Source: Acaryochloris marina S15 (lineage in GTDB: Bacteria > Cyanobacteriota > Cyanobacteriia > Thermosynechococcales > Thermosynechococcaceae). Taken from it: a stretch of DNA of 32,000 bases. Position 1 is the stretch's first letter, and each line of letters opens with the position of its first letter. The notes under the pieces were generated by a model. The model was not told the DNA's origin and made no database searches. It was given only the letters and a program-made list of their open reading frames with translations. Both the position numbers and the translations under genes were made by a program. The DNA is taken from assembly GCF_018336915.1 (NCBI RefSeq), contig NZ_CP064923.1, forward strand, positions 330,001 to 362,000. The letters run 5' to 3'. Positions 17,718 to 32,000 of this stretch are shown in pieces.

Positions 17718-18974
17718 TTACTTAGTGTCTACTGGGCTAGAGATGTTGTTGTGTGGAATTAATTCTCGAAAAAGTGATTGATACTTGCTTACAGCATGTT
17801 TGAGCTGATATTTACATAGAACAGCTTGTGCTGCTTTGTGTCCCATGTCATTACATAATTCTGAATCATTCATGATCTGGGTTAAGAGCTTAACCAATTG
17901 ATCATCATCTTGAGGTGACACTAGCCAGCCAATCCCTTCTTCTTGAATGACCTGTGCTAATTCTGATTCGTTATCTGCGATCGCAATCAATGGCTTGCCC
18001 GCAGCCATTTGGTTGTACATCCGGCTTGGAACGGACACTCCAGTCATACCCGGTAAGAAGGAAATGATACCAACATCACAAGAATTCAGCGTCACATTTT
18101 TCTGCTCATGAGGCAAGTAAGATAACACCGTCACATTCGGTAAGTGCTGATCCTGTACCCTTGCTTCCACATCTTGTTTTTGAGCCCCGGCACCAATCAG
18201 CAAAAAGTGGATTTGAGGTTGTGTGTCAGATAAGGTTTCTGCCGCATCGAGTAAGATTTTCAAGTCATGGGTTCGCCCCATATTTCCCGCATACAGTACC
18301 ACAAATTTATCCACTAAATTTAAGCGTTGTAATAGGGAATTGTTCTGCTTGTCGACAGGATAAATAATTTCGGTTTCAGCCCAATTAGGGATGCAGATCA
18401 GCTTCCCCTCTACGGGTTGGGTTAATTTAGTCTCCACTAGCTTTTGCATATCTCGCCCGAGAGTAATAATTCGGCTAGCCTGTCCATAAATCAGGCGATT
18501 GACCTCCTGCATCAGTCGGTAGACCAGAGATTGCGAATGGGCAAGCCCCGTGACGGATAATACCTCGGGGTAAACATCATGCACTAAGAGGACAAAATTA
18601 CACCCCTTCAGGGTTTTCAATAACCAGGCCATTAAGGGCAATAGAGGTGGGTTCGTGACGACTAAGATCACATCACTGGCATGACACTGCCATAAGGCGG
18701 TGAAAAAGATTGAAATTGCACGGGTACAACCATTCACCAAACGCCCGGGGAGCCAATTCTTATTAAACGTTGTTCCACGGCATCGATGAATTTCCACCTC
18801 TTTCACAACAGTATTCTGGGCCAAGCTAGATGCTTGACTATCATATAAGGAAGCTCCAGTAAAGACAGTCACTGGGTAGTCTGTGACCAGCCCTTGAGCA
18901 ATTGTGGTTAAAAAGTAGGCTGTTGAAGTCTTTTCTGGGTAAAACAGTTCCGTTAAAACTAAAATGCGTGCCAT
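17718..18974 (-). CDS. Glycosyltransferase family 4 (WcaI/WbuB-like)
   Basis: 418 aa. The N-terminus MARILVLTELFYPEKTSTAY is typical of the WcaI type. The C-terminal GT-B donor region is VSVPSRMYNQMAAGKPLIAI. Confidence 0.8.
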   Translation of the reverse strand: MARILVLTELFYPEKTSTAYFLTTIAQGLVTDYPVTVFTGASLYDSQASSLAQNTVVKEVEIHRCRGTTFNKNWLPGRLVNGCTRAISIFFTALWQCHASDVILVVTNPPLLPLMAWLLKTLKGCNFVLLVHDVYPEVLSVTGLAHSQSLVYRLMQEVNRLIYGQASRIITLGRDMQKLVETKLTQPVEGKLICIPNWAETEIIYPVDKQNNSLLQRLNLVDKFVVLYAGNMGRTHDLKILLDAAETLSDTQPQIHFLLIGAGAQKQDVEARVQDQHLPNVTVLSYLPHEQKNVTLNSCDVGIISFLPGMTGVSVPSRMYNQMAAGKPLIAIADNESELAQVIQEEGIGWLVSPQDDDQLVKLLTQIMNDSELCNDMGHKAAQAVLCKYQLKHAVSKYQSLFRELIPHNNISSPVDTK

Positions 18975-19069: not shown

Positions 19070-20338
19070 TTATGGGCTATCTAATTGCTGGAGCAAATCT
19101 TCCCATCGATTAATATGCTGTTGATAAGAAAATCGAGATTGGAAGAGATTTAAACCATTGACTGCCAATGTTATTCGCTTGATTTCATCATTAGCGATTT
19201 CAGTCACTGATTGAGCAATAGTTTGTGGTAAACAGTCGTTTAAAAAGTAAGCCGTTTGCTCATTAACTGTGCTAGGGATCTCACCAATACGAGACGTAAG
19301 AACTGCACAACCACTCGCTAAAGCTTCTAATATCACCAGTGGCTGAGCTTCAGTTTTGTATTGGCTAGGAAAAACAAAGACATGTGCTTGATGAAACAAT
19401 TCTTGCTTTTGTAATCCAATCGCCCCATCAATCCACTGTAGACTGATTTGAGAAGATTGGTTGATCTCTTTAATTTGACTTTTTATCCAGTTCTGAGCTA
19501 GCTCAGGGTTAGAAAAACGAAGATTAGCATTGTCTGAAAATATGGTTTTTCCACATAAGATAAAGTTGAGCTTCCGATGAGTCTCTCTAGCTTCTTTAGA
19601 TAGGATATAAGCTGCTTCAATAAACTGAATATATCCTTTTTCTTCAAGTAAATTACTGAGAAATAGTATATTGAGAGGCCGATTAAGTGTAAGTGTCTGT
19701 GTATGTTTTTGCTTGATTCTAGAAATATTTAAGCTATCAATTAAGCAAGTATTATCAGCCACAAATATTTTATTAGGAGTGATGCCTAGCTCTTTTAGCT
19801 GAGTCACTTGATTAGGACCTAATACTGATATAAGATTGGCAGAACCTGAAATCATACGCAAGAATTTGGCTTCTAAATCTTTATATTGCCAAGTCATGAA
19901 ATTGCTTCCATGAAGCGAAATAATACCCGTCGTTTTGCGATTATTGAAAAAATACCTTAAAACGAATGGGATTCCTTCTCGCATCATTGAGAATTTGGTT
20001 TGGCCAAGTGATACATAAAGAATATACTCAGGCTTGAGCCGAAGTACCTGAAGCCAAGCATAGAGTAATACAGGAGTAGCATTTAGTATGCTGATTAATA
20101 ATATATTTATTTTAATTCGTTGATTGGTGGTTTTGCGTTCAAGAGCAGGCAACCGGATTGAATGAACATTCCAATTCCGTTCTTGTAGACCTTTTATTAC
20201 AATCTCGGAAGCCAATCTCTGGCCAGAACAATAGGTCCCATGAGCATAAAGTGCAGCGATGCTTGTTTGCTTATTGGAGCTACCTATTGGCCATTCAGAT
20301 TGAGTCGTGTGTTTCGGCAAGAGATGTTTCATAATCAA
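19070..20338 (-). CDS. Glycosyltransferase family 4
   Basis: 422 aa. The C-terminal E-x7-E region is FVFPSQYKTEAQPLVILEALASGCAVLTS. The annotated ATG overlaps the upstream gene by 44 nt, so the true start is uncertain. Confidence 0.75.
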   Translation of the reverse strand: MIMKHLLPKHTTQSEWPIGSSNKQTSIAALYAHGTYCSGQRLASEIVIKGLQERNWNVHSIRLPALERKTTNQRIKINILLISILNATPVLLYAWLQVLRLKPEYILYVSLGQTKFSMMREGIPFVLRYFFNNRKTTGIISLHGSNFMTWQYKDLEAKFLRMISGSANLISVLGPNQVTQLKELGITPNKIFVADNTCLIDSLNISRIKQKHTQTLTLNRPLNILFLSNLLEEKGYIQFIEAAYILSKEARETHRKLNFILCGKTIFSDNANLRFSNPELAQNWIKSQIKEINQSSQISLQWIDGAIGLQKQELFHQAHVFVFPSQYKTEAQPLVILEALASGCAVLTSRIGEIPSTVNEQTAYFLNDCLPQTIAQSVTEIANDEIKRITLAVNGLNLFQSRFSYQQHINRWEDLLQQLDSP

Positions 20339-21506
20339 TTAAGCGTTTGCGAGCAATGGATTCCCAACTGAACATTTGTTTCATCTTTTGACTACCAATG
20401 TTTCCCAATTCGGCACGCTTATGGTGGTCTTTCAGTTGTAGCAATGTATCTACTAAACAATCTAAATTATTGATGTGATATACCAATCCATTGCCTTCAA
20501 TATGATCAAAATATCCAATACCATCGCTTACGACAAGTGGTAATCCACAAGCAGCAGCATCAAGCATTGAAATGCTTTCATTTGTCGGCCAGACTCCTAT
20601 ATCAGCAGCACGATAGTACGTAGACAATTGATGGTACGGCATAAAATCTAAGATTTGGCAATTTGGATATTTTGAGATTTCACTTTTTTGTACACCATTA
20701 CCTATAAAAAGCCCCACAAACTTTTGCCCCTGAGCCCGCAATCGCTCAATGGCTTGAGCAAGAATCAGTGCATTTTTAGTCTCAGTGAATTTGCCACTGT
20801 AAACACAAATGATGTCATCGGGAGAGAAACCCAACTTTTGGCGAGTTTCAATACGTTCTTGCTGCATATGAGGTGTATCCGTAGCAGGATAGAAAAAATC
20901 TGTATCTACCCCCAAAAACATGACTTCTACTTTCTGTTGCTGAACTCCAAAAAATTTCCAAGCTATCTCAGCACAGTCTTGATTCGGGCAATAGCATTTC
21001 TCTGTTACTAGGCTAGCCAGTCGACCAGGGATACTGCGTGTCAGGAAACAGCGCACTTTTGCGGGACTAATCGTTCGGTGTGGCATGCTAGCAAGCGGGA
21101 ACGTACTGGAACTACGGTGATTACCTGTAAAGAGCTTATAGCCAAGCTTTGATTTTGCAAGCGCTAAATCTAATGGAATCCAACCAATGGGCACAGTAGT
21201 CTGCACAACATGGGGAGCTATATCCTTAAGCATTTGATACCACCCTTGCATTTGAAGGTGACCTACCACTCGCTTATATGGCAAAGTATGGACTGTAAAC
21301 CCATCCAATTGTTCACTGGTTGCAGTAGAAGAGAGATTGACTAGATCAGGATACGTTTCTTCAAAGTCTTGGAGGTAGCTGTAACAAGGGAGTGTAGTGC
21401 TTACAACATGTACTTCGACGCCGAGCCGTGCTAAATACTTCGGTAAGACATTTTCGATGTATCCCATATTTTTTGTGAATGATTCGACCATCAATACAAT
21501 TTTCAT
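20295..21506 (-). CDS. Glycosyltransferase family 4
   Basis: 403 aa. The N-terminus is MKIVLMVESFTKNMGYIENVLPKYLARLGVEVHVV. The C-terminal region is ..ADIGVWPTNESISMLDAAACGLPLVVSD. Confidence 0.8.
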   Translation of the reverse strand: MKIVLMVESFTKNMGYIENVLPKYLARLGVEVHVVSTTLPCYSYLQDFEETYPDLVNLSSTATSEQLDGFTVHTLPYKRVVGHLQMQGWYQMLKDIAPHVVQTTVPIGWIPLDLALAKSKLGYKLFTGNHRSSSTFPLASMPHRTISPAKVRCFLTRSIPGRLASLVTEKCYCPNQDCAEIAWKFFGVQQQKVEVMFLGVDTDFFYPATDTPHMQQERIETRQKLGFSPDDIICVYSGKFTETKNALILAQAIERLRAQGQKFVGLFIGNGVQKSEISKYPNCQILDFMPYHQLSTYYRAADIGVWPTNESISMLDAAACGLPLVVSDGIGYFDHIEGNGLVYHINNLDCLVDTLLQLKDHHKRAELGNIGSQKMKQMFSWESIARKRLIDYETSLAETHDSI

Positions 21507-21908: not shown

Positions 21909-22634
21909 ATGCCCCTCCAAAAGATATCGAAAAAAATAATAAAACGACTGTCATATCATACATTTCAAGCATTTGGAATGGATGCAATCACTCGCATCAA
22001 AATTACCAAGAGAAATGATCTCCAAAAATTTGGGACTGATTATGGAGGTTGGGTAATTCCAACACGTCTAATTAATGAGCATTCAATTTGTTACTGTGTT
22101 GGCTGTGGAGAAGATATCTCATTTGATCTGAGCCTGATTGATCATTTTAATTGCGATGTTTATGGCTTTGATCCAACCCCGAGAGCCATTGAATATGTAA
22201 AAAGTGTTGTTGGCCAGAACCCTAAATACCATTTCTATAACGTCGGACTCTGGGATGCAGAAGATACATTAAAATTTTTTGTACCTAAAAACCCTACTCA
22301 TGTTTCTCATTCACTTGTCAACCTCCAAAAAACAAATGAGCATATATTAATTAAAGTAAACAGGCTTGCTTCTCTTATGAAAGATCTCGGTCATGAGAAG
22401 ATAGATCTTCTTAAAATTGATATTGAAGGAGCTGAGTACAAAGTTATTGAATCTATCATTGAAGATGGAATCAATATAAAAGTGATCTGTGTAGAATACG
22501 ATGAATGTTCTAATCCGCTTGATTCAAACTATAAGGATAGAGTTCAAACATCGGTGAATCATCTTCTATACAATGGTTACTCATTAGTATTTGTTCAAGA
22601 TAATGGTAATTATGTTTTTGTTAAAAGTATCTAA
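21909..22634 (+). CDS. FkbM family methyltransferase
   Basis: 241 aa. It carries the hallmark IDLLKIDIEGAEYKVIESI motif and a CVGCGEDISFD Rossmann start. It is the only plus-strand gene in the glycan locus. Confidence 0.8.
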   Translation: MPLQKISKKIIKRLSYHTFQAFGMDAITRIKITKRNDLQKFGTDYGGWVIPTRLINEHSICYCVGCGEDISFDLSLIDHFNCDVYGFDPTPRAIEYVKSVVGQNPKYHFYNVGLWDAEDTLKFFVPKNPTHVSHSLVNLQKTNEHILIKVNRLASLMKDLGHEKIDLLKIDIEGAEYKVIESIIEDGINIKVICVEYDECSNPLDSNYKDRVQTSVNHLLYNGYSLVFVQDNGNYVFVKSI

Positions 22635-22642
22635 GTCAAAAG

Positions 22643-22681
22643 CATGTTAGTTAAGTAGAATTGTGCTACTTAACTAACATG
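22643..22681. terminator. 16-bp perfect-stem hairpin between convergent genes
   Basis: CATGTTAGTTAAGTAG (22643-22658), loop AATTGTG, CTACTTAACTAACATG (22666-22681). It starts 9 nt after the FkbM-type stop. No flanking T-run, so it is a non-canonical terminator. A second 12-bp hairpin lies at 22762-22790 next to the stop of the 22807..23649 gene. Confidence 0.5.
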
Positions 22682-22806: not shown

Positions 22807-23649
22807 TTAGCTCCATGCTATTCCAATTCCACCGCCTGGATACCAGTGTTTTTTAGGCTTTTCTTTAAAGAAAATAAATTTTCGATTGGTATTCATAGCA
22901 AACCTTTGAAGCTTGTCAGTTTCATGAGAGTTATCTCCGAGAATAACTGACTTGAGAGATAGCTTCTCTTGAATTACCTTATATTCTTCCATCTCATAAT
23001 CAGCAGAGTGATCACTATCATTGATAAAAAGATCTATTGATTCTGATAGTAATTGGAGTGACTCAATTGAATCCCCATATAATATTTTCCCGACTTGATC
23101 ATAAGGAGAAGTAAACAAAAATCCTGCATCAGGATTTATATCAGTGCCGTAGTATTGACCAGAATGTCCTTCGGCTTGATTACGCAATAGAGCAGAACAT
23201 ATTACACAGCTTCCTAAGCCTTTATCAATACCAGTTTCAATAACAACTTTTGGCTTTAAGATCCGTACGAAAGCATACCAGCCAATGCGCCGTCCGTACT
23301 GTACATTTGCATCAGAGCTATTTCTATCAAGACTATTTCCTTGACAGATTGAAGTTTTTATAAGCTCTCTGAGATCTATATCTTGTTCAATCTCTTCAAA
23401 GTAGCTTAATACTTTGTTGGTATCGACTTGGGTTATTAGAGAAATAATTGAAGCTAGCTGTAAGCGATTATTAGAATCTAAACCATAGGTGAAATTTGTT
23501 ACTTCTTTTGATGTTGCTAACCATATGAGTATCCGCTTAAGTTGCGGTAGCTGATAAGCCATAGATACTCTAATTCGTAGCAGAAATATTGAGGGCTTAA
23601 TTAAGGGAGATGAAAAAAGAAGTTTCTTGAACTGTTGCTTTGTAAGCAT
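22807..23649 (-). CDS. Class I SAM-dependent methyltransferase (TylF/Methyltransf_24-like)
   Basis: 280 aa. It shows VIETGIDKGLGSCVICSALL...GTDINPDAG...DLFINDSDHSADYE, which matches the macrocin-O-MT-like fold pattern. Confidence 0.65.
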   Translation of the reverse strand: MLTKQQFKKLLFSSPLIKPSIFLLRIRVSMAYQLPQLKRILIWLATSKEVTNFTYGLDSNNRLQLASIISLITQVDTNKVLSYFEEIEQDIDLRELIKTSICQGNSLDRNSSDANVQYGRRIGWYAFVRILKPKVVIETGIDKGLGSCVICSALLRNQAEGHSGQYYGTDINPDAGFLFTSPYDQVGKILYGDSIESLQLLSESIDLFINDSDHSADYEMEEYKVIQEKLSLKSVILGDNSHETDKLQRFAMNTNRKFIFFKEKPKKHWYPGGGIGIAWS

Positions 23650-24097: not shown

Positions 24098-24847
24098 TTA
24101 ATTGTTTTTGTTGAAGCCTTTAGTCTCAGTGAAATAAGGACTTCTGCATATAAGAGTAGAATGATAAGTCCATAGAGAAGTTGCCCATCTTGGAAATAGA
24201 TTTAAGCTAATCTCTTTAATATAATATTGAGCTATACCTTTTCTATCGCCAGCATATCTATACATTGTTTTTGATATATTACTAACTTGCTGTCCTAGAA
24301 CTTGAAATTGACAAGTTTGTATCAAGCGCCTAATTGTTTTCGTATTGTAGTAATTGATATGGCCAACTTTATCAGGCACAAAATCTTTGGATAGACGAAT
24401 GTTGTCTTCAAGGGGAACTTCAATACATACATGTTGGGCAACACGGGCAATTTCATAAAGTAGTTGACGTGGAAATTCTACATGCTCTAATACATGGGTT
24501 AGGATTACAAGATCAAATGTTTGGTTATCATACGGAATTTTATAACCATCAAATTGTTGACATTCGACGAGATTAGGAATTTGACGCCTCTCAATAACCG
24601 TAACACCAGAAGCTGATAGTTCTAGTCCATACAGATGATCTCCAAATTGTCGATTACTCAATTCCTGTAAGATTGCACCATCGCCAGCTCCAACTTCTAA
24701 AATTGTGCAATGAGGAAGAACATCACATAATTGAATAATATTATTGACTTTGTCAGTAGCACCTAGCTTTCTCCATTCTAGTTCGCCTTCTTTATAGTAT
24801 TCATCGTAATTCTCTTTGAGGGACTTGGAAGGAGTAAAATTTTGCAT
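24098..24847 (-). CDS. Class I SAM-dependent methyltransferase
   Basis: 249 aa. Motif I is ILEVGAGDGAILQEL. A post-I acidic residue follows (GLELS), then FDLVILTHVLEHVEFP. Confidence 0.8.
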   Translation of the reverse strand: MQNFTPSKSLKENYDEYYKEGELEWRKLGATDKVNNIIQLCDVLPHCTILEVGAGDGAILQELSNRQFGDHLYGLELSASGVTVIERRQIPNLVECQQFDGYKIPYDNQTFDLVILTHVLEHVEFPRQLLYEIARVAQHVCIEVPLEDNIRLSKDFVPDKVGHINYYNTKTIRRLIQTCQFQVLGQQVSNISKTMYRYAGDRKGIAQYYIKEISLNLFPRWATSLWTYHSTLICRSPYFTETKGFNKNN

Positions 24848-24881: not shown

Positions 24882-26252
24882 TTAAATTGATGGTTTAAGC
24901 GATTTTGGGATTTTCTTTTTGTTCTTCTTAAGGGAACTAAATCGTCGTAACATTAGATAAAAAATAAAATTTAGACCTAAGCCAAAAGAAAATAATGTTG
25001 TCAGAAAATTGCCTTCTGACAGGAAGAAGGTTGACATGGACAAGGCGATATAAGTTCCCAAGACGCTCGGTGTTTTGTGCGACCCGATAAACCACTGATG
25101 ATAGTAAGATAGCAGGCTAACTATAAGAATTGATTGTAAGACTACTCCAAAATAGCTGAAATCAGCCCAGGCTGCCCCAATAAATGCAGCATTCCATGTT
25201 CCAGTTGCATCAGTAATGTCACTAAACAAAAAATAGCCACGAATCACGCGTCCTGGATCGAGCACCACATCATTGTCAGTAAAGATATTAGTGAATGAAG
25301 AGCTAGCGCCATTTAAGTGAGGAAAAATGTCAGGATATACATGGAAGTGCAATTGCAAAGTTCGTGATACTTCTCCACTTAGTCGATTTGCAACTGCCAT
25401 TAAACCTTCTTGGTAGGTAATACCAGGGTACTGAACCATATATTGAAAAGGGAGCAGAATAAATATTAGCAATAGTGCAATGCCGATGAATCGTTTTCCA
25501 ACTTTAGTCGTTAATGATATGGTTATATGACCTGTTGAAAAGAGCCAGCAAAGAAATAACCCCAATAGAATCAGAATTACACCACCTTTCTGACCTGAAA
25601 TTAAATTTAGTAAAAATGTTATACAAAAGATAGCCCAAAAAAGCGGGGTATATTTTGTATTTATTTTTCGAATAAAAAATAAGATATATAGACATAAGGG
25701 TAATGCTGTAAATCTAAATGTACTGGCTATTCTTAGAAGTACTCCATTATTCGCATTTGCTCCAAAGGAAACTCGTGCTGCTTTATACGTTTCTGCTGTA
25801 ATGTCACCAGTTAAGAAATAATCAATAAAATCAGGTCTCCATAGCAGCCAGAATGTAAAAATAGCAACGAAAATTGCAAAAAATGGAAAAATATCTCTGA
25901 CATCCTTCCGTTTTTTTGTCGCTAGCTTGAGAAGATCCTGCTTGAATTCTTTCCGACTGAGCTTTCTTTTTCCAAAGAATGGACGTGAGATAATTATTCC
26001 CACAACGAAACTGATATACATTAACACTAATGAAGCTAACCATCTCAGGATTACCTGGTCAGAGAGTTGAAGCCCCATTTGTCGATAAGTAATATCGACA
26101 TTAAAAGGTATCATTATTCCATGCTTTAGAAAGAAGGCATAGAAAAATATAGTGAAAATGCTTAATCTAGAAAAGCAGCTAGTTAGCTTTTCTAATAGGT
26201 ACCCGATGATGAATAAAAATAAATACCAACTTATTATAAATCCTATATTCAT
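24882..26252 (-). CDS. Polytopic membrane protein, oligosaccharide repeat-unit (Wzy-like) polymerase candidate
   Basis: 456 aa with at least 10 hydrophobic segments. It is very AT-rich with Phe/Ile/Leu-rich composition. Size and context are typical of Wzy-type polymerases, but no diagnostic motif exists for this family. Confidence 0.5.
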   Translation of the reverse strand: MNIGFIISWYLFLFIIGYLLEKLTSCFSRLSIFTIFFYAFFLKHGIMIPFNVDITYRQMGLQLSDQVILRWLASLVLMYISFVVGIIISRPFFGKRKLSRKEFKQDLLKLATKKRKDVRDIFPFFAIFVAIFTFWLLWRPDFIDYFLTGDITAETYKAARVSFGANANNGVLLRIASTFRFTALPLCLYILFFIRKINTKYTPLFWAIFCITFLLNLISGQKGGVILILLGLFLCWLFSTGHITISLTTKVGKRFIGIALLLIFILLPFQYMVQYPGITYQEGLMAVANRLSGEVSRTLQLHFHVYPDIFPHLNGASSSFTNIFTDNDVVLDPGRVIRGYFLFSDITDATGTWNAAFIGAAWADFSYFGVVLQSILIVSLLSYYHQWFIGSHKTPSVLGTYIALSMSTFFLSEGNFLTTLFSFGLGLNFIFYLMLRRFSSLKKNKKKIPKSLKPSI

Positions 26253-26310: not shown

Positions 26311-27723
26311 CTAAGACACTAAAATCTGTTGGTAAAGGTCTTTCTCTTCACTAGTTGTTAAATGGCTGTTATGCCATAGAAGTGTGAAGTTTCCTGAGAA
26401 TAGATGGCATGTCATCTTCATCGAGTTTATGGCCTTGAATGCTTCACCACTTGATATTTTTAAGTTCATAGACTTCTCTTGTAAAACAGTGGCTTCCATC
26501 ACAATTAAGGGACGTTCGTATAGCTGTAAAGATTGACTTGTCAATAGGTTAAATACAGGAAATTCAAAACAAGTTCCACACCGAAAACCAATATGTTCAG
26601 CAAAGCTTAAAGTCGTATCGTAGTCTAGTCCAGAATTATTGAGGTTTTGCCAAGTTTTTGGCGTACTCCATCTCAGGCAATGTTGTCGCCCTCCCCATTG
26701 TTTTTGGGTGATATGTTCTTCTGCACAAATAGTCTTTAAAATATCGACTTCTTGTTGAGTTTGGGGCTGGTCTTGATAGGTATTGAAGCTTGTATGCAAA
26801 CCAATTTCATGGCCTCGCTGATGAATTTCGGATAGTAAAGAGCGCATGACTGGATGAGATAAGTCATAATCTCCATCAATGGGGTGACAGGTGTGGTCTG
26901 CAATAAAGTAAAATGCGCTTTTCAGTCCCTGTTGTTCACTAACTTGCATAATAAAATCAAACACGTTGCAAGGATCAGACTTGAGATTACCCTGTTTGAC
27001 TGATAACCAAGATTGAATACTTTTTGCTAATGCCCTAGGACTTTTACGACGGACTATATCTCCGACACACCGCTTGAGTAAACGCTGTGGCCCAGAGAAG
27101 GCATAGCGAAAGGGCTCATCCACATCATGACTAACATAGATCTGGAAGCTATGATGCCGTCGCTCAAGTCTTGGCCACAATAGCAGCATACAATGCCAGA
27201 GAATCTCGATATATTCATTGACAATGGGGCGCACAAGAAAGTTCTCTTGATAGGCCAGTGATGCTGAGGCTGGAAAACGATTATGTATATCCCGCTCGGG
27301 TTTTACGACCTCTTCGTACCGCGTCAGCATAAAAAATGTAGAACCGAATATATCTAACCCCACATATACCTGGTCTTCAGATTGATTTAGAAAGTATGGA
27401 TTTTCTGGATCATCCCCAAAAATAATAGGTATATCCGTGTGAACTAACCGTGGACTTAGGGTGGTGTTACCTAAATCCCATATTTCAAGAGGCTGTTTTG
27501 GTAGGGAAGTAGGTGTTAACCATAAGTGCTTTGGTGTAGAGAAAAGAGTGTCTGCGATGACTAACTGCCGATGATCTCTAGCCGTAATGATTACATTGGA
27601 GTGGGAGTGTTTTTGAAGTTGGACTTGAAATCCCAGAAACTCTTCAAAAAGGACCCGGACGATGTATGTTCGCTCTGCCCAATAGGAATCGGGCATCTCA
27701 ATTTGAAGTGTTGGTTTAGACAC
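26311..27723 (-). CDS. CE4-like polysaccharide deacetylase/deformylase family protein with N-terminal extra domain
   Basis: 470 aa. It shows YVSHDVDEP (Asp-Asp metal/base motif variant), GHEIGLHTSFNTY (His-His motif) and QHCLRWSTP (Arg motif), spaced as in NodB/ArnD-type enzymes. The N-terminal domain of about 190 aa is of unknown function. Confidence 0.6.
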   Translation of the reverse strand: MSKPTLQIEMPDSYWAERTYIVRVLFEEFLGFQVQLQKHSHSNVIITARDHRQLVIADTLFSTPKHLWLTPTSLPKQPLEIWDLGNTTLSPRLVHTDIPIIFGDDPENPYFLNQSEDQVYVGLDIFGSTFFMLTRYEEVVKPERDIHNRFPASASLAYQENFLVRPIVNEYIEILWHCMLLLWPRLERRHHSFQIYVSHDVDEPFRYAFSGPQRLLKRCVGDIVRRKSPRALAKSIQSWLSVKQGNLKSDPCNVFDFIMQVSEQQGLKSAFYFIADHTCHPIDGDYDLSHPVMRSLLSEIHQRGHEIGLHTSFNTYQDQPQTQQEVDILKTICAEEHITQKQWGGRQHCLRWSTPKTWQNLNNSGLDYDTTLSFAEHIGFRCGTCFEFPVFNLLTSQSLQLYERPLIVMEATVLQEKSMNLKISSGEAFKAINSMKMTCHLFSGNFTLLWHNSHLTTSEEKDLYQQILVS

Positions 27724-27762
27724 GACTGACTTTGGATTTGTGACCGAGTGAGTTGAAGCAAT

Positions 27763-28005
27763 TCATGCATCAGTGTTCTCAACTGCTTCAATAATTGATT
27801 TTACAGACTGTAACTCAGCGATTTGTTCATCATCAAACTGAACATCAAATTCTTCTTCAATCGCTAGAACTAAGTTGATATGTTTCATGGATTCCCATTG
27901 TTCAACGGATTCTGGTGAAGAGTCTATGTTGAGCTTATCGGTTGGAACATTGAGGATGGTTGAGATGACTTGAATAACCCGAACTTGTGTTGTTGTTCCA
28001 GGCAT
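27763..28005 (-). CDS. Standalone acyl carrier protein
   Basis: 80 aa. It reads ...SSPESVEQWESMKHINLVLAIEEEFDVQFDDEQI. The W-E-S-M serine is placed like the phosphopantetheinyl Ser of the (D/E)S(L/M) motif at the start of helix II. Its start lies 6 nt after the FkbH-like gene stop. Confidence 0.8.
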   Translation of the reverse strand: MPGTTTQVRVIQVISTILNVPTDKLNIDSSPESVEQWESMKHINLVLAIEEEFDVQFDDEQIAELQSVKSIIEAVENTDA

Positions 28006-28010
28006 TGACG

Positions 28011-29801
28011 TTAGCCTCCTTTAGCTACCTGAGAGATGATTTCACCAACAAAACGGCTTGCAGGCACGTCTTGACAATGGATAAGGTCTAAATGATACCG
28101 TCCAGCAGACTGTTCAGTGAAACTGCGATCGCAATAAAATGATTGGACCTGCATGTTCTTTTGTGTGGGCTGATACTGTCCCTCAATGGTCTGGCACTCT
28201 CGATGTGTTACGAGTTTGAGGATCTCATGCAAAAATGCATCTTCGACATGTCTGCCTAACACTCGGCAAGACAACAACAGCGAATCAATTACTGCGTGAG
28301 CATCTTGATAGATAACAATGCAGACTCCTACAATACCGTAGACGCCAAACTTATCTTTCAACTGTAGGTACAAAACATCAGATGTTGAGCAACTGATGAA
28401 ACCTGCAATATCTGCTTCAGAATACCGTTGGGTAGTCAAGTTGAATTGATTTGTTTTTTGAGTCAACTGTGCAACCCGTGGCATAGAGAACTCATCTGCG
28501 AAAGAGATCTCAGCAACCATTTCTAAAGATTCATGGTATTGGGTGATGCTCATGAACTGTTTTTGAGCTTGGGCTCGCTGCTGGGCAGCAGAGTACATGG
28601 CTCCACGGTCTAAGTCTTCTTGAGTTAGGGCTAGCGTATCAAACCAACCACAGCTCGATAACATCTGACGGTATTCTGTAGACCGTTTACGAGGTAAGTG
28701 GATGGTTTCTACTTCGGGAAGCAGTTGTCGAACAAGATTCACTTCAAATTCGCTATCGTCTACAAATACTAAGCTATCAAGTCCTATGTTTAATTCCTGC
28801 GCGATTTGGTGGAGATTGTGGGCTTTGTCATCCCAATTAATTTGGGCACAGGCAATATGAGATTCTTGCAAGACCATGTCAGGGTGATTATGAAATACAT
28901 CCCATACCTCGGCTTCGTTATTCTTACTACACAAGGCAATCAAAATACCTCGATGGTAGAGGTTGAGAATTGCTTGCTGAAATTCGTAGAAGCAAGATCC
29001 AGGATAAGAATTGGCGCTTAATTTTATGCCAGCTAAACCATCTTCACCAATCACACCGCCCCATAGGGTGTTATCACAGTCCAGGACCAGACATTTTTTG
29101 TTTTGTCCTTTTAAGGCCCGAATATACTTAAATACTTCAGTTGCTATCTCGCCTAGTGCCTGTCTCGTATAGGGCGATCTGCCGATATGCCAGTAGCGAT
29201 AGTCAAAGTAATGATGACTACCTAGCCGAGCAAGGGATAAATCTAAATCAACGAAATAACTATTCTCTTGCCCAAGCAAGAGGCTGTGAATAGCAGCATT
29301 TAATCGTTGTATAGTAGCGGTTTGCCCCGTCTGTCTTTGCAGGTCTAGGATTCCCCAGCTTGGATAAAGTGGACGTTCAAAACCCATCCATAAGATCATG
29401 GCTGTGGTTTGACGACGAAGTCCTTGAATAATAGTTTGCGCATACTCCAGAATTCGTTCGCATTCTGAATCTATCTCTTTAGCGGTCAATGTGGGGAAAC
29501 ATTGGGCCAAATGGGCGGATAAAACTTCTAATTTGAGAAAAACGAGAACACAATCTGTTTGACTATTGAAGAGTTGGGAATTATTTGCGATCGCATCTTG
29601 GATACTGCTGTCATATCCCCCCCACTGCACCTGGGCAGCGAAGCCCATTTGATAAGCCCAGTAGGCAAGATACGGTTCGATGGGCTCAACAGTGATGTTC
29701 CGAACAACAGAGATATTCAGCTCAGGCTGATTTTCCACCGATACCTGATTTAGAAAATTCTGAATCTCAGCAAACGTCAACATCATCTTTAAGCCGTACA
29801 T
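28011..29801 (-). CDS. FkbH-like HAD-IIIC phosphatase/acyl-loading enzyme with C-terminal GNAT-like domain
   Basis: 596 aa. HAD motifs are LVLDCDNTLWGGVIGEDG (DxDxT), LCSKN and FVDDSEFE. The C-terminal family pattern is QLTQKTNQFNLTTQRY...DKFGVYGIVG...LLLSCRVLGRHVED. Alternative Met starts at 29786/29783 would remove the overlap with the upstream gene. Confidence 0.85.
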   Translation of the reverse strand: MYGLKMMLTFAEIQNFLNQVSVENQPELNISVVRNITVEPIEPYLAYWAYQMGFAAQVQWGGYDSSIQDAIANNSQLFNSQTDCVLVFLKLEVLSAHLAQCFPTLTAKEIDSECERILEYAQTIIQGLRRQTTAMILWMGFERPLYPSWGILDLQRQTGQTATIQRLNAAIHSLLLGQENSYFVDLDLSLARLGSHHYFDYRYWHIGRSPYTRQALGEIATEVFKYIRALKGQNKKCLVLDCDNTLWGGVIGEDGLAGIKLSANSYPGSCFYEFQQAILNLYHRGILIALCSKNNEAEVWDVFHNHPDMVLQESHIACAQINWDDKAHNLHQIAQELNIGLDSLVFVDDSEFEVNLVRQLLPEVETIHLPRKRSTEYRQMLSSCGWFDTLALTQEDLDRGAMYSAAQQRAQAQKQFMSITQYHESLEMVAEISFADEFSMPRVAQLTQKTNQFNLTTQRYSEADIAGFISCSTSDVLYLQLKDKFGVYGIVGVCIVIYQDAHAVIDSLLLSCRVLGRHVEDAFLHEILKLVTHRECQTIEGQYQPTQKNMQVQSFYCDRSFTEQSAGRYHLDLIHCQDVPASRFVGEIISQVAKGG

Positions 29802-30223
29802 TCTAGAATTTCAACCAGGCCAAATCCGTGTATCTGATAAAAAGACACATTCTGAAAATTGAATAAAATGGCAGGTTTGGGGGGTGAGATCGTAATTATG
29901 CGGTGTTCTTGACGAAGCTTATCAATCGTTTGTTCCACATTCTCACTGACATAGCAGAGGTGGTAAATGATCTGAGCATAATCTGTTAACCACTCATCTA
30001 AGGGACCCGGAGAATCGGTGGGATAGATCAACTCTATATCAGGCATTGATGAATGCTCACCCATCCTCAAATTGACATTCTGCAACTCATCATAAGTTTC
30101 AGGACCAATTTGATAATCTAAATCTCTCAAGAAGTGAATGGCTTTTTGAGGCTTACGGACGGCCAGACCAAAATGGTGGAACTCCAAGCCAAATGGGTTA
30201 GAACTAATCATCGACTTTGCCAA
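29789..30223 (-). CDS. VOC (glyoxalase/bleomycin-resistance/methylmalonyl-CoA epimerase-like) family protein
   Basis: 144 aa. It has FHHFGLAV at the first beta-strand. Its size and beta-alpha-beta-beta-beta pattern are typical of single-module-pair VOC proteins. It overlaps both neighbours. Confidence 0.6.
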   Translation of the reverse strand: MAKSMISSNPFGLEFHHFGLAVRKPQKAIHFLRDLDYQIGPETYDELQNVNLRMGEHSSMPDIELIYPTDSPGPLDEWLTDYAQIIYHLCYVSENVEQTIDKLRQEHRIITISPPKPAILFNFQNVSFYQIHGFGLVEILECTA

Positions 30224-31130
30224 GGATAAGAGCGATATTAATAGGCAGCTTGTCCTGTTCAGATTGAGCTAAGGTCGTTGATTGGTAAGGAATCAACAAT
30301 TGGTGCTTGATATATAAACCACTGGCTTGAACTATGTCTGCAATTTGTTGCGCATGCCCAAATAAATAGATATGGTCAATGGCAGGAGAATTAATACAGG
30401 TCGTGACATGGATATGTGAGGTGTTGTGGGTCAACGCAGCAATCTTTTTCAAGAATTTTTGCGGTTGCTCTACATGCTCTAGTACTTCACCCATGACCAC
30501 TGCATCATATTGATCATTGGGTTCCCAAGCTAGAAAATCGCATTCTTTGATACTGTAGTTTTCAAACTGACCAAAATAACGGCTAGAAAGAATTTTTTGA
30601 GTAAGAAACACACTTGTAGGACTAATATCAACGCCTAAGAACTCTTCATACTGAGAACTTTGCATGGCCTCCATCATGTGAAATCCATGTCCTGGACCAA
30701 TTTCCAAATATCGCCCAGACTGTGTTTTTGGCAGCATCTCCTTGAAAAAATGTTTCATTTGAGCATGATTGGACCATAAAAAAGTTGTTATAGCCAAGCC
30801 ATACATATACATGCTCATGTACTCTTCATTTCGATACACTAAAGATTCAACTTCAGCATAAGACGAATACTTGTAATGACCATGGCGCTTAAAGTAGAGC
30901 TGCTGTGTAAAAGTATCTTTAACAATTAAGTCATAACATTCAGCTAAGTACCCTAATGTTAACTGTTGATCCAGACAATAATTGAGGTATTGAATGAAAA
31001 CCTGAGTGTCGCTTTGTGAAAGAGCTTTCACTGAATCTGCTAAGAAATTGCTTTGGAGTTTGTTAATCCTCAATATTTCTTGAATAAGCTCATCAATCAA
31101 GGGAGCTGATAAACGTTTTGTTGAATGCAT
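30204..31130 (-). CDS. Class I SAM-dependent methyltransferase with about 140-aa N-terminal extension
   Basis: 308 aa. Motif I is RYLEIGPGHGFHMMEA, followed by LGVDIS and then YDAVVMGEVLEHVEQPQKFL. Confidence 0.78.
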   Translation of the reverse strand: MHSTKRLSAPLIDELIQEILRINKLQSNFLADSVKALSQSDTQVFIQYLNYCLDQQLTLGYLAECYDLIVKDTFTQQLYFKRHGHYKYSSYAEVESLVYRNEEYMSMYMYGLAITTFLWSNHAQMKHFFKEMLPKTQSGRYLEIGPGHGFHMMEAMQSSQYEEFLGVDISPTSVFLTQKILSSRYFGQFENYSIKECDFLAWEPNDQYDAVVMGEVLEHVEQPQKFLKKIAALTHNTSHIHVTTCINSPAIDHIYLFGHAQQIADIVQASGLYIKHQLLIPYQSTTLAQSEQDKLPINIALILGKVDD

Positions 31131-31242
31131 ATAAAATTCCTTTTTATTGCTTTTATAATGGACAATAGATATTCGAATAACAGAATCTTTGAGTTAATTT
31201 GTCAAAGCTATAAATGCTTCATTAAGATCCATGCACTTTTAT

Positions 31243-32000
31243 TCAGCCTGTCTGGGTTTTTATGGTTTTTCGCAATAGCTTCTTGATCGCTTTTGATATG
31301 TTAAATGTTAATGAACCTGTATCCCAAACGGTGATTTCTTTAGCTGTATAGATATTAACTGCAGCATCGAAGAAATCTTGCATTTTAAATGTGAATAACT
31401 TGATTCCTGATTGAGTAAATGCTTGTGAGTTGGAGATGTCTAGTAAGCTGAAATAATAGATAGGGTCATAACCTCCTTTGGGGAAAGTTGCAGGGTTTCG
31501 CATATATGTACTGACTAACTGCTCACACCCATCAGATAACTTCACTGTGAATTCCTCTGGATCTTCGTAATAGATTTTATGCTTAAACTTATCTTTGAAG
31601 TGGTCTTCAATCATATGACATGGCGTAAATGCTTCAAATCCAACGCCAATTCCTAAATATTTTGCTCCATCCCCCATGATCTGATAGTAAGGAGACAGAG
31701 GACCAAAGGGGTAAGGAGATTGATGGTGATTGCCAGAGAATAGCTGAGCTTTCTGGCCATATGAAATAGTACTAAATATAGGATTTAGACTGCGCACGGA
31801 GCCTTTTTTTCTTCGAAGTATTTCAGCCATCATGCCGGACTCAGTAGCTGTTTTTTTAATATTAAAAACTTTAGTTTTTTCTGATATTTGATCGCGATCA
31901 ATAGGAAAGCATAGCGTCATTAATGTGCTGTCTTCTCCTAGATAAGTTATGAGATCTTTAAGTAGAGATTTAATAGGAACTAACTTGCCAGTCTTTAGAT
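31243..32000 (-). CDS. AAC(3)/Antibiotic_NAT-fold N-acyltransferase family protein (5-prime partial, runs off window)
   Basis: The frame stays open upstream of Met 31920 to the window edge (…LKTGKLVPIKSLLKDLITYLGEDSTLMTLCFP). Family pattern segments are G..STL..L.FP, ESGMMAEILRRKKGSVRSLNPIFSTISYGQKA, and GPLSPYYQIMGDGAKYLGIGVGFEAFTPCHMIE. They parallel YokD/AAC(3) motifs (GTLvMP; G.i.E.fR....RS.HP..SfaA.G; SPl...LLLGV...nTs.H.aE). Confidence 0.7.
   Translation of the reverse strand, partial: LKTGKLVPIKSLLKDLITYLGEDSTLMTLCFPIDRDQISEKTKVFNIKKTATESGMMAEILRRKKGSVRSLNPIFSTISYGQKAQLFSGNHHQSPYPFGPLSPYYQIMGDGAKYLGIGVGFEAFTPCHMIEDHFKDKFKHKIYYEDPEEFTVKLSDGCEQLVSTYMRNPATFPKGGYDPIYYFSLLDISNSQAFTQSGIKLFTFKMQDFFDAAVNIYTAKEITVWDTGSLTFNISKAIKKLLRKTIKTQTG

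Follow-up and report, generated by a model that had tools for sequence, protein, structure and literature searches.

The DNA at positions 26311-32000 of the window (the whole 32,000-nucleotide stretch of Acaryochloris marina S15 that we analysed) raises the question of what an FkbH-family loader and a stand-alone acyl carrier protein (ACP) do among polysaccharide genes. The answer that we favour, with moderate confidence, is that six genes here work as a single tailoring unit within a polysaccharide locus of the Wzx/Wzy-dependent type. The unit would exchange an N-acetyl group on a nucleotide-linked 2,3-diamino-uronic acid for an acyl group derived from glycerate, with acyl-ACP as the donor for the AAC(3)-fold enzyme. 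An ORF check and Pfam/NCBIfam profile searches agreed with the earlier note in placing six tightly packed, co-directional genes of these families here, all on the minus strand (Table 1). The gaps are 112 nt between the AAC(3)-like (AAC3) and methyltransferase (MT) genes, 5 nt between the FkbH stop and the ACP start, and 39 nt between the ACP and CE4 genes, and the VOC gene overlaps both neighbours, as had been claimed, by 20 nt (MT) and 13 nt (FkbH). The genes said to follow the cassette were likewise found: a Wzy-like gene (TIGR04370), three more methyltransferase genes, and three GT4 genes (Pfam/NCBIfam matches).

Table 1. Genes of the cassette and its downstream flank, in window coordinates
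Feature	Position	Strand	Evidence or remark
AAC(3)-fold (Antibiotic_NAT) acyltransferase	31243..32000	-	PF02522 9e-22; window edge truncates 64 N-terminal codons
SAM-dependent class I methyltransferase	30204..31130	-	Pfam/NCBIfam matches
VOC-fold protein, methylmalonyl-CoA-epimerase-like	29789..30223	-	Glyoxalase_4 1.5e-11
FkbH-family three-domain loader, 596 aa	28011..29801	-	TIGR01686 2e-88; HAD-IIIC 3e-17
Stand-alone ACP, 80 aa	27763..28005	-	PP-binding 1e-6 and NCBIfam ACP matches
DUF7033 + CE4 deacetylase, VimE-like	26311..27723	-	DUF7033 6e-34; Polysacc_deac_1 2e-5; NCBIfam VimE 2.7e-52
Wzy-type repeat-unit polymerase (context)	24882..26252	-	TIGR04370 1.8e-10
Methyltransferase (context)	24098-24847	-	Pfam/NCBIfam
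Methyltransferase (context)	22807-23649	-	Pfam/NCBIfam
FkbM-type methyltransferase (context)	21909-22634	+	Pfam/NCBIfam
GT4 glycosyltransferase (context)	20295-21506	-	Pfam/NCBIfam
GT4 glycosyltransferase (context)	19070-20338	-	Pfam/NCBIfam
GT4 glycosyltransferase (context)	17718-18974	-	Pfam/NCBIfam

The 596-aa protein proved to be a full member of the FkbH family, as had been proposed. It scored 296.5 bits against TIGR01686, twice the cut-off of 146.65, and also matched TIGR01681 and PDB 3SLR (6e-45). An AF2 model and Foldseek searches resolved an SGNH-like N-terminal domain, a HAD-IIIC phosphatase, and a GNAT-fold C-terminal domain with an invariant Cys; the HAD motifs are present, and residues D241, D243, S292, K326, D348, D349, and C512 were invariant in 17 sequences from many phyla. 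The GNAT-like region lies within TIGR01686 (positions 235-563 correspond to model positions 3-321 of 323). In the ACP, Ser39 (WESM) stands 10 residues ahead of EEEF, presumably the same register as that of the attachment Ser in E. coli ACP. An ACP match was present in the FkbH locus in 44 of 47 genome loci. The 596-aa clade is very widespread, and its partners vary widely (SDR-MaoC fusions, acyl-CoA dehydrogenases, FemAB-like GNATs). The FkbH-type enzyme OzmB makes glyceryl-ACP from 1,3-bisphosphoglycerate (PMC9057759), and we propose that the 596-aa enzyme likewise converts 1,3-bisphosphoglycerate to glyceryl-S-ACP. Like the FkbH/OzmB systems (methoxymalonyl-ACP, tetronate), the cassette has the TIGR01686 core, in which HAD-IIIC is joined to a GNAT-like part with its Cys, and a small ACP of its own whose gene lies alongside, but its loader adds a 230-aa SGNH-like N-terminal domain to the 366-aa FkbH/OzmB type, it has neither the FkbI/FkbK oxidation to hydroxymalonyl nor a PKS, and its acyl group is predicted to finish on a sugar amine.

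The frame of the AAC(3)-like gene is open up to the window edge and does not begin at 31920, as had been supposed; the complete protein, found in contig L001, has 316 aa and is identical at 250 of 251 residues. The AAC(3) fold assigned to this ORF was upheld by PF02522, by an AF2 model (pLDDT 93.6) with AAC(3)-IIIa, FrbF, and AAC(3)-Xa as its best Foldseek matches (TM 0.7-0.78), and by the catalytic His and acid, which are retained in the motif T-x-x-H-x-x-E. T190 is invariant, and H193 and E/D196 each occur in 30 of 32 sequences. The fold, the motif, and an amine on an aminosugar-like substrate as the acceptor are common to the cassette enzyme and the AAC(3) aminoglycoside N-acetyltransferases or FrbF; however, it is only about 15-20% identical to them, falls far below the NCBIfam AAC_3 equivalog cut-off (46.7 versus 270), carries extra basic N- and C-terminal helices, and is predicted to use acyl-ACP where they use acetyl-CoA. 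A functional link to the ACP is strongly supported, as an AAC(3)-like gene and an ACP gene shared one operon in 13 of 13 independent contexts examined, in one of them with an AMP-binding ligase as the loader in place of FkbH. We propose that the product is an acyl-ACP:aminosugar N-acyltransferase. To our knowledge, no AAC(3)-fold enzyme anywhere, nor any enzyme of the cassette, has been shown to use acyl-ACP.

The DUF7033/CE4 protein scored 24.9 bits against Polysacc_deac_1 (cut-off, 23.1) and, over its full length, 177.8 bits against NCBIfam VimE, well under the equivalog cut-off of 440. It contains the motifs HDVD (199-202) and HEIGLH (305-310), direct reading of its sequence revealed no signal peptide or membrane segment, and its gene was present with the cassette's AAC(3) clade in all six type-A loci. 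We propose that it is a cytoplasmic UDP-2,3-diacetamido-2,3-dideoxy-hexuronate N-deacetylase. For the MT, which matched Methyltransf_23/12/31/11/25 and resembles UbiG and BioC weakly, we propose O-methylation of glyceryl-ACP; its homologues directly adjoin FkbH in 16 of 45 genome loci. The VOC protein, with a match to TIGR03081 under the cut-off (2e-5), is proposed to be an accessory part, a C2 epimerase of the acyl-ACP thioester. Nine FkbH loci have its gene, but some cassettes that are complete in other respects (L005, L012, L015, L030, and L051) lack it.

The DNA past 32000 was read from contig L001, which is 99.6% identical and extends 5.7 kb beyond, and from the A. marina locus. Directly upstream of the AAC(3)-like gene, L001 encodes an NDP-sugar 6-dehydrogenase, a GFO 3-dehydrogenase-like protein, an LbH acetyltransferase, a DegT aminotransferase, and Wzx. 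The acetyltransferase matched WlbB 3MQG (5e-58) and the aminotransferase WbpE (3e-76); the GFO protein was nearer to the archaeal and GnnA-type UDP-GlcNAc 3-dehydrogenases than to WbpB, which leaves it uncertain at what stage C-6 is oxidised. These Wbp-like genes and Wzx point to the likely acceptor sugar, very probably UDP-2,3-diacetamido-2,3-dideoxy-hexuronic acid, made by the enzymes encoded just past the window. A WbpA/B/D/E-like set adjoins the cassette in all four cyanobacterial loci; the full set was not visible in the retrieved DNA of metagenomic contig L051 and Syntrophomonas.

The cassette recurs in the same gene order in A. marina MBIC11017, where the Wzy-type gene after it is also conserved, and was found in Chamaesiphon, Rivularia, Syntrophomonas, and one metagenomic contig. 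All six proteins are 40-50% identical in Syntrophomonas, where the order is ACP-MT-VOC-FkbH-AAC3-DUF7033-Wzy and a Wzy_C-family gene occupies the Wzy position. In pseudaminic-acid loci, a sister clade of AAC(3)-like genes stands beside an ACP in every case, immediately following it, and is itself followed by a DUF4910/DUF2172 protein (L041, L030, and L054) or fused to it (L015). The order in L054 is PseBCFGHI-ACP-FkbH-VOC-AAC3-DUF4910-MT. Vibrio coralliilyticus keeps ACP-AAC3-DUF4910 although its loader is an AMP-binding ligase.

The earlier note had likened the cassette to Nod-factor synthesis (NodB, NodF, NodA). The shared logic stands, in that a CE4 enzyme frees an amine and a dedicated ACP supplies the acyl group, but the two are unrelated in acyltransferase fold, in acyl group, in loader, and in acceptor, and this is an analogy only. 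Given the Wbp-like genes and the VimE-like deacetylation, the closest precedent is instead the Wbp/Vim pathway of Porphyromonas gingivalis and Tannerella forsythia (WbpA/B/E/D, VimE, VimA; Veith et al. 2020, PMC7468200), in which the Wbp product is deacetylated and then reacylated, the deacetylase activity of VimE being inferred from genetics only. Common to the two systems is a route of the Wbp type to UDP-2,3-diacetamido-2,3-dideoxy-hexuronic acid, after which a VimE-type deacetylase (DUF7033/CE4) acts and the amine that it frees is acylated again. They differ in the re-acylating enzyme (AAC(3) fold versus the FemAB/GNAT-like fold of VimA), the donor (a predicted FkbH-built acyl-ACP versus an amino acid), and the fate of the product (a Wzy-polymerised cyanobacterial glycan versus a T9SS anchor).

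The pairing of an AAC(3) fold with an ACP had been called uncharacterised. This holds in that no member has been characterised biochemically, but the gene combination is not unique: judged by published annotation, not sequence, the flagellin glycosylation island of C. jejuni contains the same gene types, namely N-acetyltransferase(s), a SAM methyltransferase, an 'epimerase', HAD-IIIC/FkbH, and a putative N-deacetylase, and the product known for it is a glyceroyl group, O-methylated and N-linked. Strain 11168 produces N5-(2,3-di-O-methylglyceroyl)-Pse, for which Cj1295 is required; annotated beside Cj1295 are N-acetyltransferases (Cj1296/7 and Cj1298), a SAM methyltransferase (Cj1300), an 'epimerase' (cj1301), and HAD-IIIC/FkbH (Cj1302), and we take Cj1299 to be the ACP. 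One variant goes on producing the di-O-methylglyceroyl sugar although its Cj1296/7 is out of frame; provided that the analogy is sound, Cj1298 must be the transferase in C. jejuni. The pseudaminic-acid loci that we fetched carry the same module beside the DUF4910 protein, which we assume to be of the Cj1295 type. In C. jejuni a nonulosonic acid is the acceptor, and DUF4910/DUF2172 serves as the deacylase where the cassette has DUF7033/CE4; experimental support there is for Cj1295 only, and in a 2026 paper Cj1296-Cj1310 are labelled as having no part in flagellar glycosylation.

The classical role of an FkbH/ACP pair is to feed a polyketide or non-ribosomal pathway encoded nearby with a starter or extender unit of the methoxymalonyl-ACP or tetronate type. 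Such a role is highly implausible here and is effectively refuted by the gene content around the locus. The window, the 5.7 kb that L001 adds to it, and the A. marina locus with 10 kb on either side contain no PKS, NRPS, FkbI, FkbK, FabH-like, or tetronate gene, which extends what had been said of PKS/NRPS and FkbI/FkbK past 32000; on the flanks stand Wbp-like genes, Wzx, Wzy, and glycosyltransferases. It is fairly unlikely that the architecture is right and the acyl group is not glycerate-derived, another small acyl phosphate being loaded or the ACP-bound unit being reshaped (e.g., to lactyl). The N-terminal domain absent from characterised FkbH/OzmB and the very diverse partners of the clade would fit such a scheme, but the HAD and Cys motifs are strictly conserved, the score is double the FkbH model's cut-off, and the sole conserved ACP-side partners are the methyltransferase and the epimerase-like protein, which fit the di-O-methylglyceroyl group of C. 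jejuni.

The final transfer had been left between the AAC(3)-fold enzyme and the GNAT-like C-terminus of the FkbH protein; the evidence favours the former, with its ACP link. That the C-terminus does it, leaving the AAC(3)-like protein as an ordinary acetyl-CoA N-acetyltransferase for another amine of the repeat unit, is unlikely. The domain does have a GNAT fold, and acetyl-CoA is the donor in every AAC(3)-fold enzyme with a solved structure; however, the GNAT-like domain is part of the canonical FkbH loader, inside a model that also covers the 366-aa OzmB type, and carries the invariant Cys expected for an acyl-enzyme intermediate, while the AAC(3)-like gene keeps its ACP even with a non-FkbH loader and is fused to the deacylase partner in L015. 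It is quite improbable that the Wbp link is coincidental and that the acyl group goes not to a nucleotide sugar but to, for example, a protein, a lipid-linked intermediate, or the completed polymer. L051 and Syntrophomonas would allow this, but the deacetylase is a full-length VimE homologue that appears cytoplasmic, the cyanobacterial loci all have the adjacent Wbp-like set, and the sister clade lies inside CMP-pseudaminic-acid operons.

The idea that a glyceryl-ACP-derived acyl group is put on a deacetylated sugar amine is thus supported by the families, folds with conserved catalytic residues, and conserved synteny, from which we infer the substrates, step order, acylated position, and degree of methylation of the exchange that we favour. 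WbpA/B/E/D-like enzymes would make UDP-2,3-diacetamido-2,3-dideoxy-hexuronic acid, and the VimE-like DUF7033/CE4 enzyme would take off one N-acetyl group, at N-2 by analogy with P. gingivalis. The FkbH-family enzyme would dephosphorylate 1,3-bisphosphoglycerate and pass the glyceryl unit to the stand-alone ACP, where the MT would O-methylate it and C2 may be inverted by the epimerase-like VOC protein. Acyl-ACP, not acetyl-CoA, would then be the donor from which the AAC(3)-fold enzyme acylates the freed amine, and GT4 enzymes would build the product into a repeat unit for flipping and polymerisation. The cassette points to candidate genes for similar sugar decorations in other bacteria, including Campylobacter.

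The earlier note had described six tightly packed co-directional genes in 26311-32000; these ORFs, all on the minus strand, and their tight packing and overlaps were borne out, and profile searches confirmed every family that it had assigned to them. The FkbH-like gene ends 5 nt before the start of the ACP gene, the gap from the ACP gene to the deacetylase gene is 39 nt, and the VOC gene overlaps the methyltransferase gene by 20 nt and the FkbH-like gene by 13 nt. The AAC(3)-like ORF belongs to the proposed family but not with the extent given, as its reading frame runs uninterrupted up to the edge of the window and the complete protein, of 316 aa, is encoded in L001, a contig 99.6% identical to the window.

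Genes of the cassette, with the profile evidence for each
Gene product	Position	Strand	Evidence
DUF7033 + CE4 deacetylase	26311-27723	minus	profile search
ACP, PP-binding	27763-28005	minus	profile search
FkbH-like, TIGR01686 + HAD-IIIC	28011-29801	minus	profile search, 296 bits (2x cut-off)
VOC protein, Glyoxalase_4	29789-30223	minus	profile search
Class I methyltransferase	30204-31130	minus	profile search
AAC(3)-like, Antibiotic_NAT	31243 onward	minus	profile search, protein partial in window

The FkbH-like protein scored 296.5 bits against TIGR01686 (cut-off, 146.65), with residues 235-563 covering positions 3-321 of the 323 in the model, and 63.6 bits against TIGR01681 (cut-off, 35.75). The pattern sought was that of HAD enzymes (DxDxT, Ser/Thr, Lys, DD) plus a conserved Cys for an acyl-enzyme intermediate, and among 17 sequences from many phyla D241-C-D243-N-T, S292, K326, D348/D349, and C512 (in SCRVLGR) turned out to be invariant. 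The role of this Cys as the acyl-enzyme site is known from OzmB, whose HAD and GNAT unit takes up the glyceryl group of 1,3-bisphosphoglycerate as a glyceryl-S-enzyme and then hands it to an ACP (PMC9057759). An AF2 model of moderate confidence comprised an SGNH-like N-terminal domain, a HAD domain, and a GNAT-fold C-terminal domain; since the HAD domain was modeled with low confidence, domain-level fold matches alone were used. The HAD domain matches PDB 3SLR (6e-45) and makes up, with the GNAT part, the canonical FkbH unit. Residues 1-230 were modeled with confidence as an SGNH/GDSL-esterase-like fold (Foldseek 7e16, 8ik1); within the 596-aa FkbH clade this domain carries invariant R34, N35, E39, P43, and Y44 and no GDS-type serine, and it is missing from the 366-aa OzmB-type FkbH. 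The adjacent ACP scored 29.2 bits against PF00550 (cut-off, 20.8), and its Ser39 lies 10 residues before EEEF, the standard register for phosphopantetheine attachment.

The FkbH-like clade is very large and highly conserved (more than 8000 matches at 50-60% identity across phyla), and an ACP match was present in the same locus in 44 of 47 genome loci; a literature search for a characterized FkbH-like enzyme in a glycan pathway gave annotations only. The commonest third partner of the FkbH-ACP pair was the window-type methyltransferase (16 loci). Elsewhere, in comparison loci L003-L049, the pair was accompanied in 12 loci by an SDR-MaoC dehydratase fusion, in 12 by LbH acyltransferases encoded right behind the ACP, and in 7 by VimA-like FemAB/GNAT Acetyltransf_6 proteins, with acyl-CoA dehydrogenases and second ACPs also among the partners. 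This variety suggests that many phyla, and two archaeal-labeled MAGs among them, use glyceryl-ACP for several uncharacterized decorations. The cassette's own VOC protein is a member of the VOC fold (Glyoxalase_4, 45 bits; cut-off, 27) that remained, with 25 bits, below the equivalog cut-off of 114.95 for methylmalonyl-CoA epimerase (TIGR03081); its H/H/E positions, as read from the sequence, are epimerase-like.

The partial AAC(3)-like protein scored 78.2 bits against PF02522 (cut-off, 25). The AF2 model of the AAC(3)-like protein (pLDDT, 93.6) matched AAC(3)-IIIa, FrbF, and AAC(3)-Xa in Foldseek (E, 5e-19; target-normalized TM, ~0.7-0.78), and the T-x-x-H-x-x-E motif is kept, H193 and E/D196 each being found in 30 of 32 sequences. 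The score against the NCBIfam AAC_3 equivalog, 46.7 bits, was far under the cut-off of 270, and the gene should therefore not be filed as a resistance gene. As in the other cyanobacterial-type proteins, both ends form long, strongly basic helices (residues 1-31, with nine Arg/Lys, encoded outside the window, and residues 295-316, encoded by 31243-31308), which the 255- to 270-aa pseudaminic-type relatives and the resistance enzymes do not have. These helices may serve for docking to the acidic ACP or for anchoring in a membrane.

With 23 matches, the clade of the window's AAC(3)-like protein is a small one, and each of its examined contexts, namely, four cyanobacterial loci, one Syntrophomonas locus, and one metagenomic contig, contains FkbH, ACP, and a DUF7033 deacetylase. 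In Syntrophomonas the order is ACP-MT-VOC-FkbH-AAC3-DUF7033-Wzy, with all six proteins 40-50% identical. A sister clade lies immediately after the ACP in pseudaminic-acid loci, exemplified by a Psychromonadaceae genome (MT-VOC-FkbH-ACP-AAC3-DUF4910-DegT-...-CMP-sugar synthetase) and by Sporomusa (PseB-C-F-G-H-I-ACP-FkbH-VOC-AAC3-DUF4910-MT). One 594-aa protein of a deltaproteobacterial MAG (L015:12059-13840) is a fusion of an AAC(3)-like domain to DUF2172/DUF4910, and the comparison-locus gene L012:6076-7545 probably encodes such a fusion as well, linking two putative activities, acyl transfer and N-deacylation. We take DUF2172/DUF4910 to be the architecture of Cj1295 of Campylobacter jejuni, too. 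In Vibrio coralliilyticus CP009264 (L053:4078-10055), an HMGL-like enzyme and an AMP-binding ligase replace FkbH while the ACP-AAC3-DUF4910 trio is kept; this module presumably decorates a nonulosonic acid with another acyl group. It also encodes a 205-aa protein and a cyclase, its carrier protein has 77 aa, and it adjoins NeuB and CMP-sugar synthetase genes.

Thus, the AAC(3)-like gene was tied to an ACP in 13 of 13 contexts, whatever the loader, and its partner was one of two alternative putative N-deacylases, DUF7033/CE4 in the diamino-uronic-acid loci or DUF4910 in six of the seven nonulosonic-acid loci. Taken together, the ACP linkage and the deacylase partner are the strongest support for an AAC(3)-fold enzyme using acyl-ACP, the central idea of the earlier note. 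We know of no biochemical precedent for the use of acyl-ACP by the AAC(3) fold.

The sequence beyond the window indicated a likely acceptor. L001 reaches 5.7 kb past position 32000. There the AAC(3)-like gene is immediately preceded by a gene for a Wzx-type flippase and, farther upstream, by genes for an NDP-sugar 6-dehydrogenase, a GFO-family dehydrogenase, an LbH acetyltransferase, and a DegT aminotransferase. The LbH enzyme matches the UDP-GlcNAc3NA N-acetyltransferase WlbB (3MQG; 5e-58), and the DegT enzyme matches WbpE (3e-76). The GFO enzyme had no match to the solved WbpB/WlbA structures, its closest relatives being archaeal/GnnA-type UDP-GlcNAc 3-dehydrogenases. All four Wbp enzyme types (6-dehydrogenase, 3-dehydrogenase, 3-aminotransferase, and 3-N-acetyltransferase) are together in L001, outside the window. 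The four genes are probably the enzyme set for UDP-2,3-diacetamido-2,3-dideoxy-hexuronic acid, with a GFO enzyme closer to the archaeal/GnnA type than to WbpB. WbpA/B/D/E-like genes adjoin the cassette in L001 and in three other cyanobacterial loci (L003-L005).

The deacetylase scored 116.7 bits against DUF7033 and 24.9 bits against CE4 (cut-off, 23.1), and a PDB sequence search with it gave no match. Against NF053580, named UDP-2,3-diacetamido-2,3-dideoxy-glucuronate deacetylase (VimE), it reached 177.8 bits of the 440 set as the equivalog cut-off, though the alignment was full length (residues 49-468 to positions 34-426 of 431), which makes it a homologue of VimE, not an equivalog. The match becomes informative because of the Wbp-like enzyme set beside the cassette. 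The protein has the features expected of the VimE type: the DUF7033 plus CE4 architecture, the Asp/His metal and catalytic motifs HDVD and HEIGLH, and genomic linkage to Wbp-like genes. For Porphyromonas and Tannerella it has been proposed that VimE removes the acetyl group at N-2 of the Wbp product and that VimA then acylates the product with Ser or Gly (PMC7468200); the activity of VimE is itself a presumed one.

The analysis supported and sharpened the interpretation of the earlier note. The explanation that we consider the most probable, with moderate confidence, is that a VimE-like enzyme would deacetylate the UDP-diNAc-hexuronate, FkbH would make glyceryl-ACP, which would then be O-methylated and perhaps epimerized at C2 by the accessory VOC protein, and the AAC(3)-fold enzyme would transfer the acyl group. 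One methyltransferase is encoded in the cassette and three more nearby. The acylated position (N-2, by analogy), the number of methyl groups, the stereochemistry, and the gluco or manno configuration of the sugar are all inferred.

An acyl unit other than the glyceryl-derived one is unlikely, the loader having the invariant FkbH residues. That the GNAT domain of FkbH itself performs the final transfer is quite unlikely; the domain is present, and the AAC(3)-like gene accompanies the ACP even where FkbH is replaced. An acceptor that is not a nucleotide sugar is improbable to a high degree, the cassette adjoining Wbp-like genes in all four cyanobacterial loci. The WbpD-like LbH acetyltransferase was considered as the ACP-dependent enzyme, since LbH transferases come after the ACP in 12 other FkbH loci, and was rejected, as it is a close WlbB/WbpD homologue (5e-58) inside the Wbp block. 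The supply of a PKS pathway by FkbH/ACP can practically be dismissed. Neither the window nor L001 nor the locus of A. marina contained a PKS, NRPS, FkbI, or FkbK gene, and the mark of a methoxymalonyl-ACP pathway, an FkbI-type acyl-ACP dehydrogenase and an FkbK-type 3-hydroxyacyl dehydrogenase beside FkbH/ACP, was absent. Having read the sequence beyond the window, we rejected PKS/NRPS or tetronate supply; the claim that these genes are missing holds for the 5.7 kb past 32000 too, and the finding that the earlier note had named as fatal to its proposal did not appear.

The proposed AAC(3)-fold transfer of a glyceryl-derived group has a possible parallel in C. jejuni NCTC 11168, which makes CMP-Pse with an N5-(2,3-di-O-methylglyceroyl) group and requires Cj1295, an aminopeptidase-like protein hypothesized to remove the N5 acetyl (PMC3068675). 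By annotation, the genes beside it encode N-acetyltransferases (Cj1296/7 and Cj1298, the latter first classed as "antibiotic resistance"), a SAM methyltransferase (Cj1300), a protein of the HAD-IIIC/FkbH family (Cj1302), and an "epimerase" (cj1301). Cj1296/7 is switched off in a variant still making the modified sugar (PMC3068675), a 2026 paper labels the genes next to Cj1295 as uninvolved, and the biosynthetic genes for glyceroyl-type groups have been described as unidentified (PMC5378307). Campylobacter was absent from the matches of a homologue search with a pseudaminic-type AAC(3)-like protein, and the parallel draws on the published annotations and on non-Campylobacter pseudaminic-acid loci. 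By this analogy, the window cassette is best read as a glyceroyl-type module like that of C. jejuni, joined to a front end of the Wbp/VimE type.

The cassette is not new in kind, as it brings the Wbp/Vim logic together with loading by FkbH/ACP and has widespread homologous modules. A clear prediction about the enzymology follows from it, as do candidate genes for a sugar modification long without assigned genes. It also predicts that Acaryochloris-type cyanobacteria have a sugar not described before, namely, an N-(O-methyl)glyceroyl 2,3-diamino-uronic acid. Together with its relatives, it would extend the Wbp/Vim deacetylate-reacylate logic beyond Bacteroidota and offers a concrete, testable enzyme set with a predicted new donor type for the AAC(3) fold, acyl-ACP. 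We give an even chance to a broader reading, in which AAC(3)-fold proteins would be a widespread, unrecognized class of N-acyltransferases that acylate aminosugars from acyl-ACP. They would be the constant core of a modular "deacetylate and re-acylate" system that diversifies surface glycans by swapping the loader (an adenylating ligase or FkbH), the enzymes for tailoring on the carrier (MT, VOC), and the deacetylase (DUF7033/CE4 for diamino-uronic, DUF4910 for nonulosonic acids). The system would also include the unassigned genes for the di-O-methylglyceroyl and N-glyceroyl sugars of Campylobacter and perhaps those for the sugars of Tannerella and Vibrio. If so, the aminoglycoside AAC(3) resistance enzymes would seem to be derived from glycan-tailoring ancestors. 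Unusual N-acyl groups on bacterial sugars (for example, glyceroyl, di-O-methylglyceroyl, and 3-hydroxybutyryl) shape antigenicity and phage and immune recognition.

The window begins with split rpoC1/rpoC2 genes, as is typical of cyanobacteria, and the glycan locus extends from ~17.7 kb to the window end with a GC content of 0.32-0.44 versus 0.47-0.50 elsewhere in the window. A. marina MBIC11017 (locus at NC_009925, 3,663,182-3,684,966) has eleven genes in an order identical to that in the window and L001 (FkbH, 87% identical), preceded by a WbpM/CapD-like dehydratase gene. Downstream of Wzy the two strains differ, a 280-aa Methyltransf_24 protein and an FkbM-type methyltransferase having no counterpart in MBIC11017. 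The low GC and the strain-variable gene content fit a horizontally exchanged O-antigen/EPS island. The FkbM-type methyltransferase gene (21909-22634, plus strand) is the only one of the locus on the plus strand, opposite to all its neighbors. The stretch just downstream of it, at 22659-22665, is where the mismatches of the window with L001 are concentrated. Unrelated to the cassette, a 403-aa ORF (8584-9795, minus strand) has a low-complexity N-terminal half with much Pro, Ala, Ser, and Lys, after which comes a hydrophobic segment.
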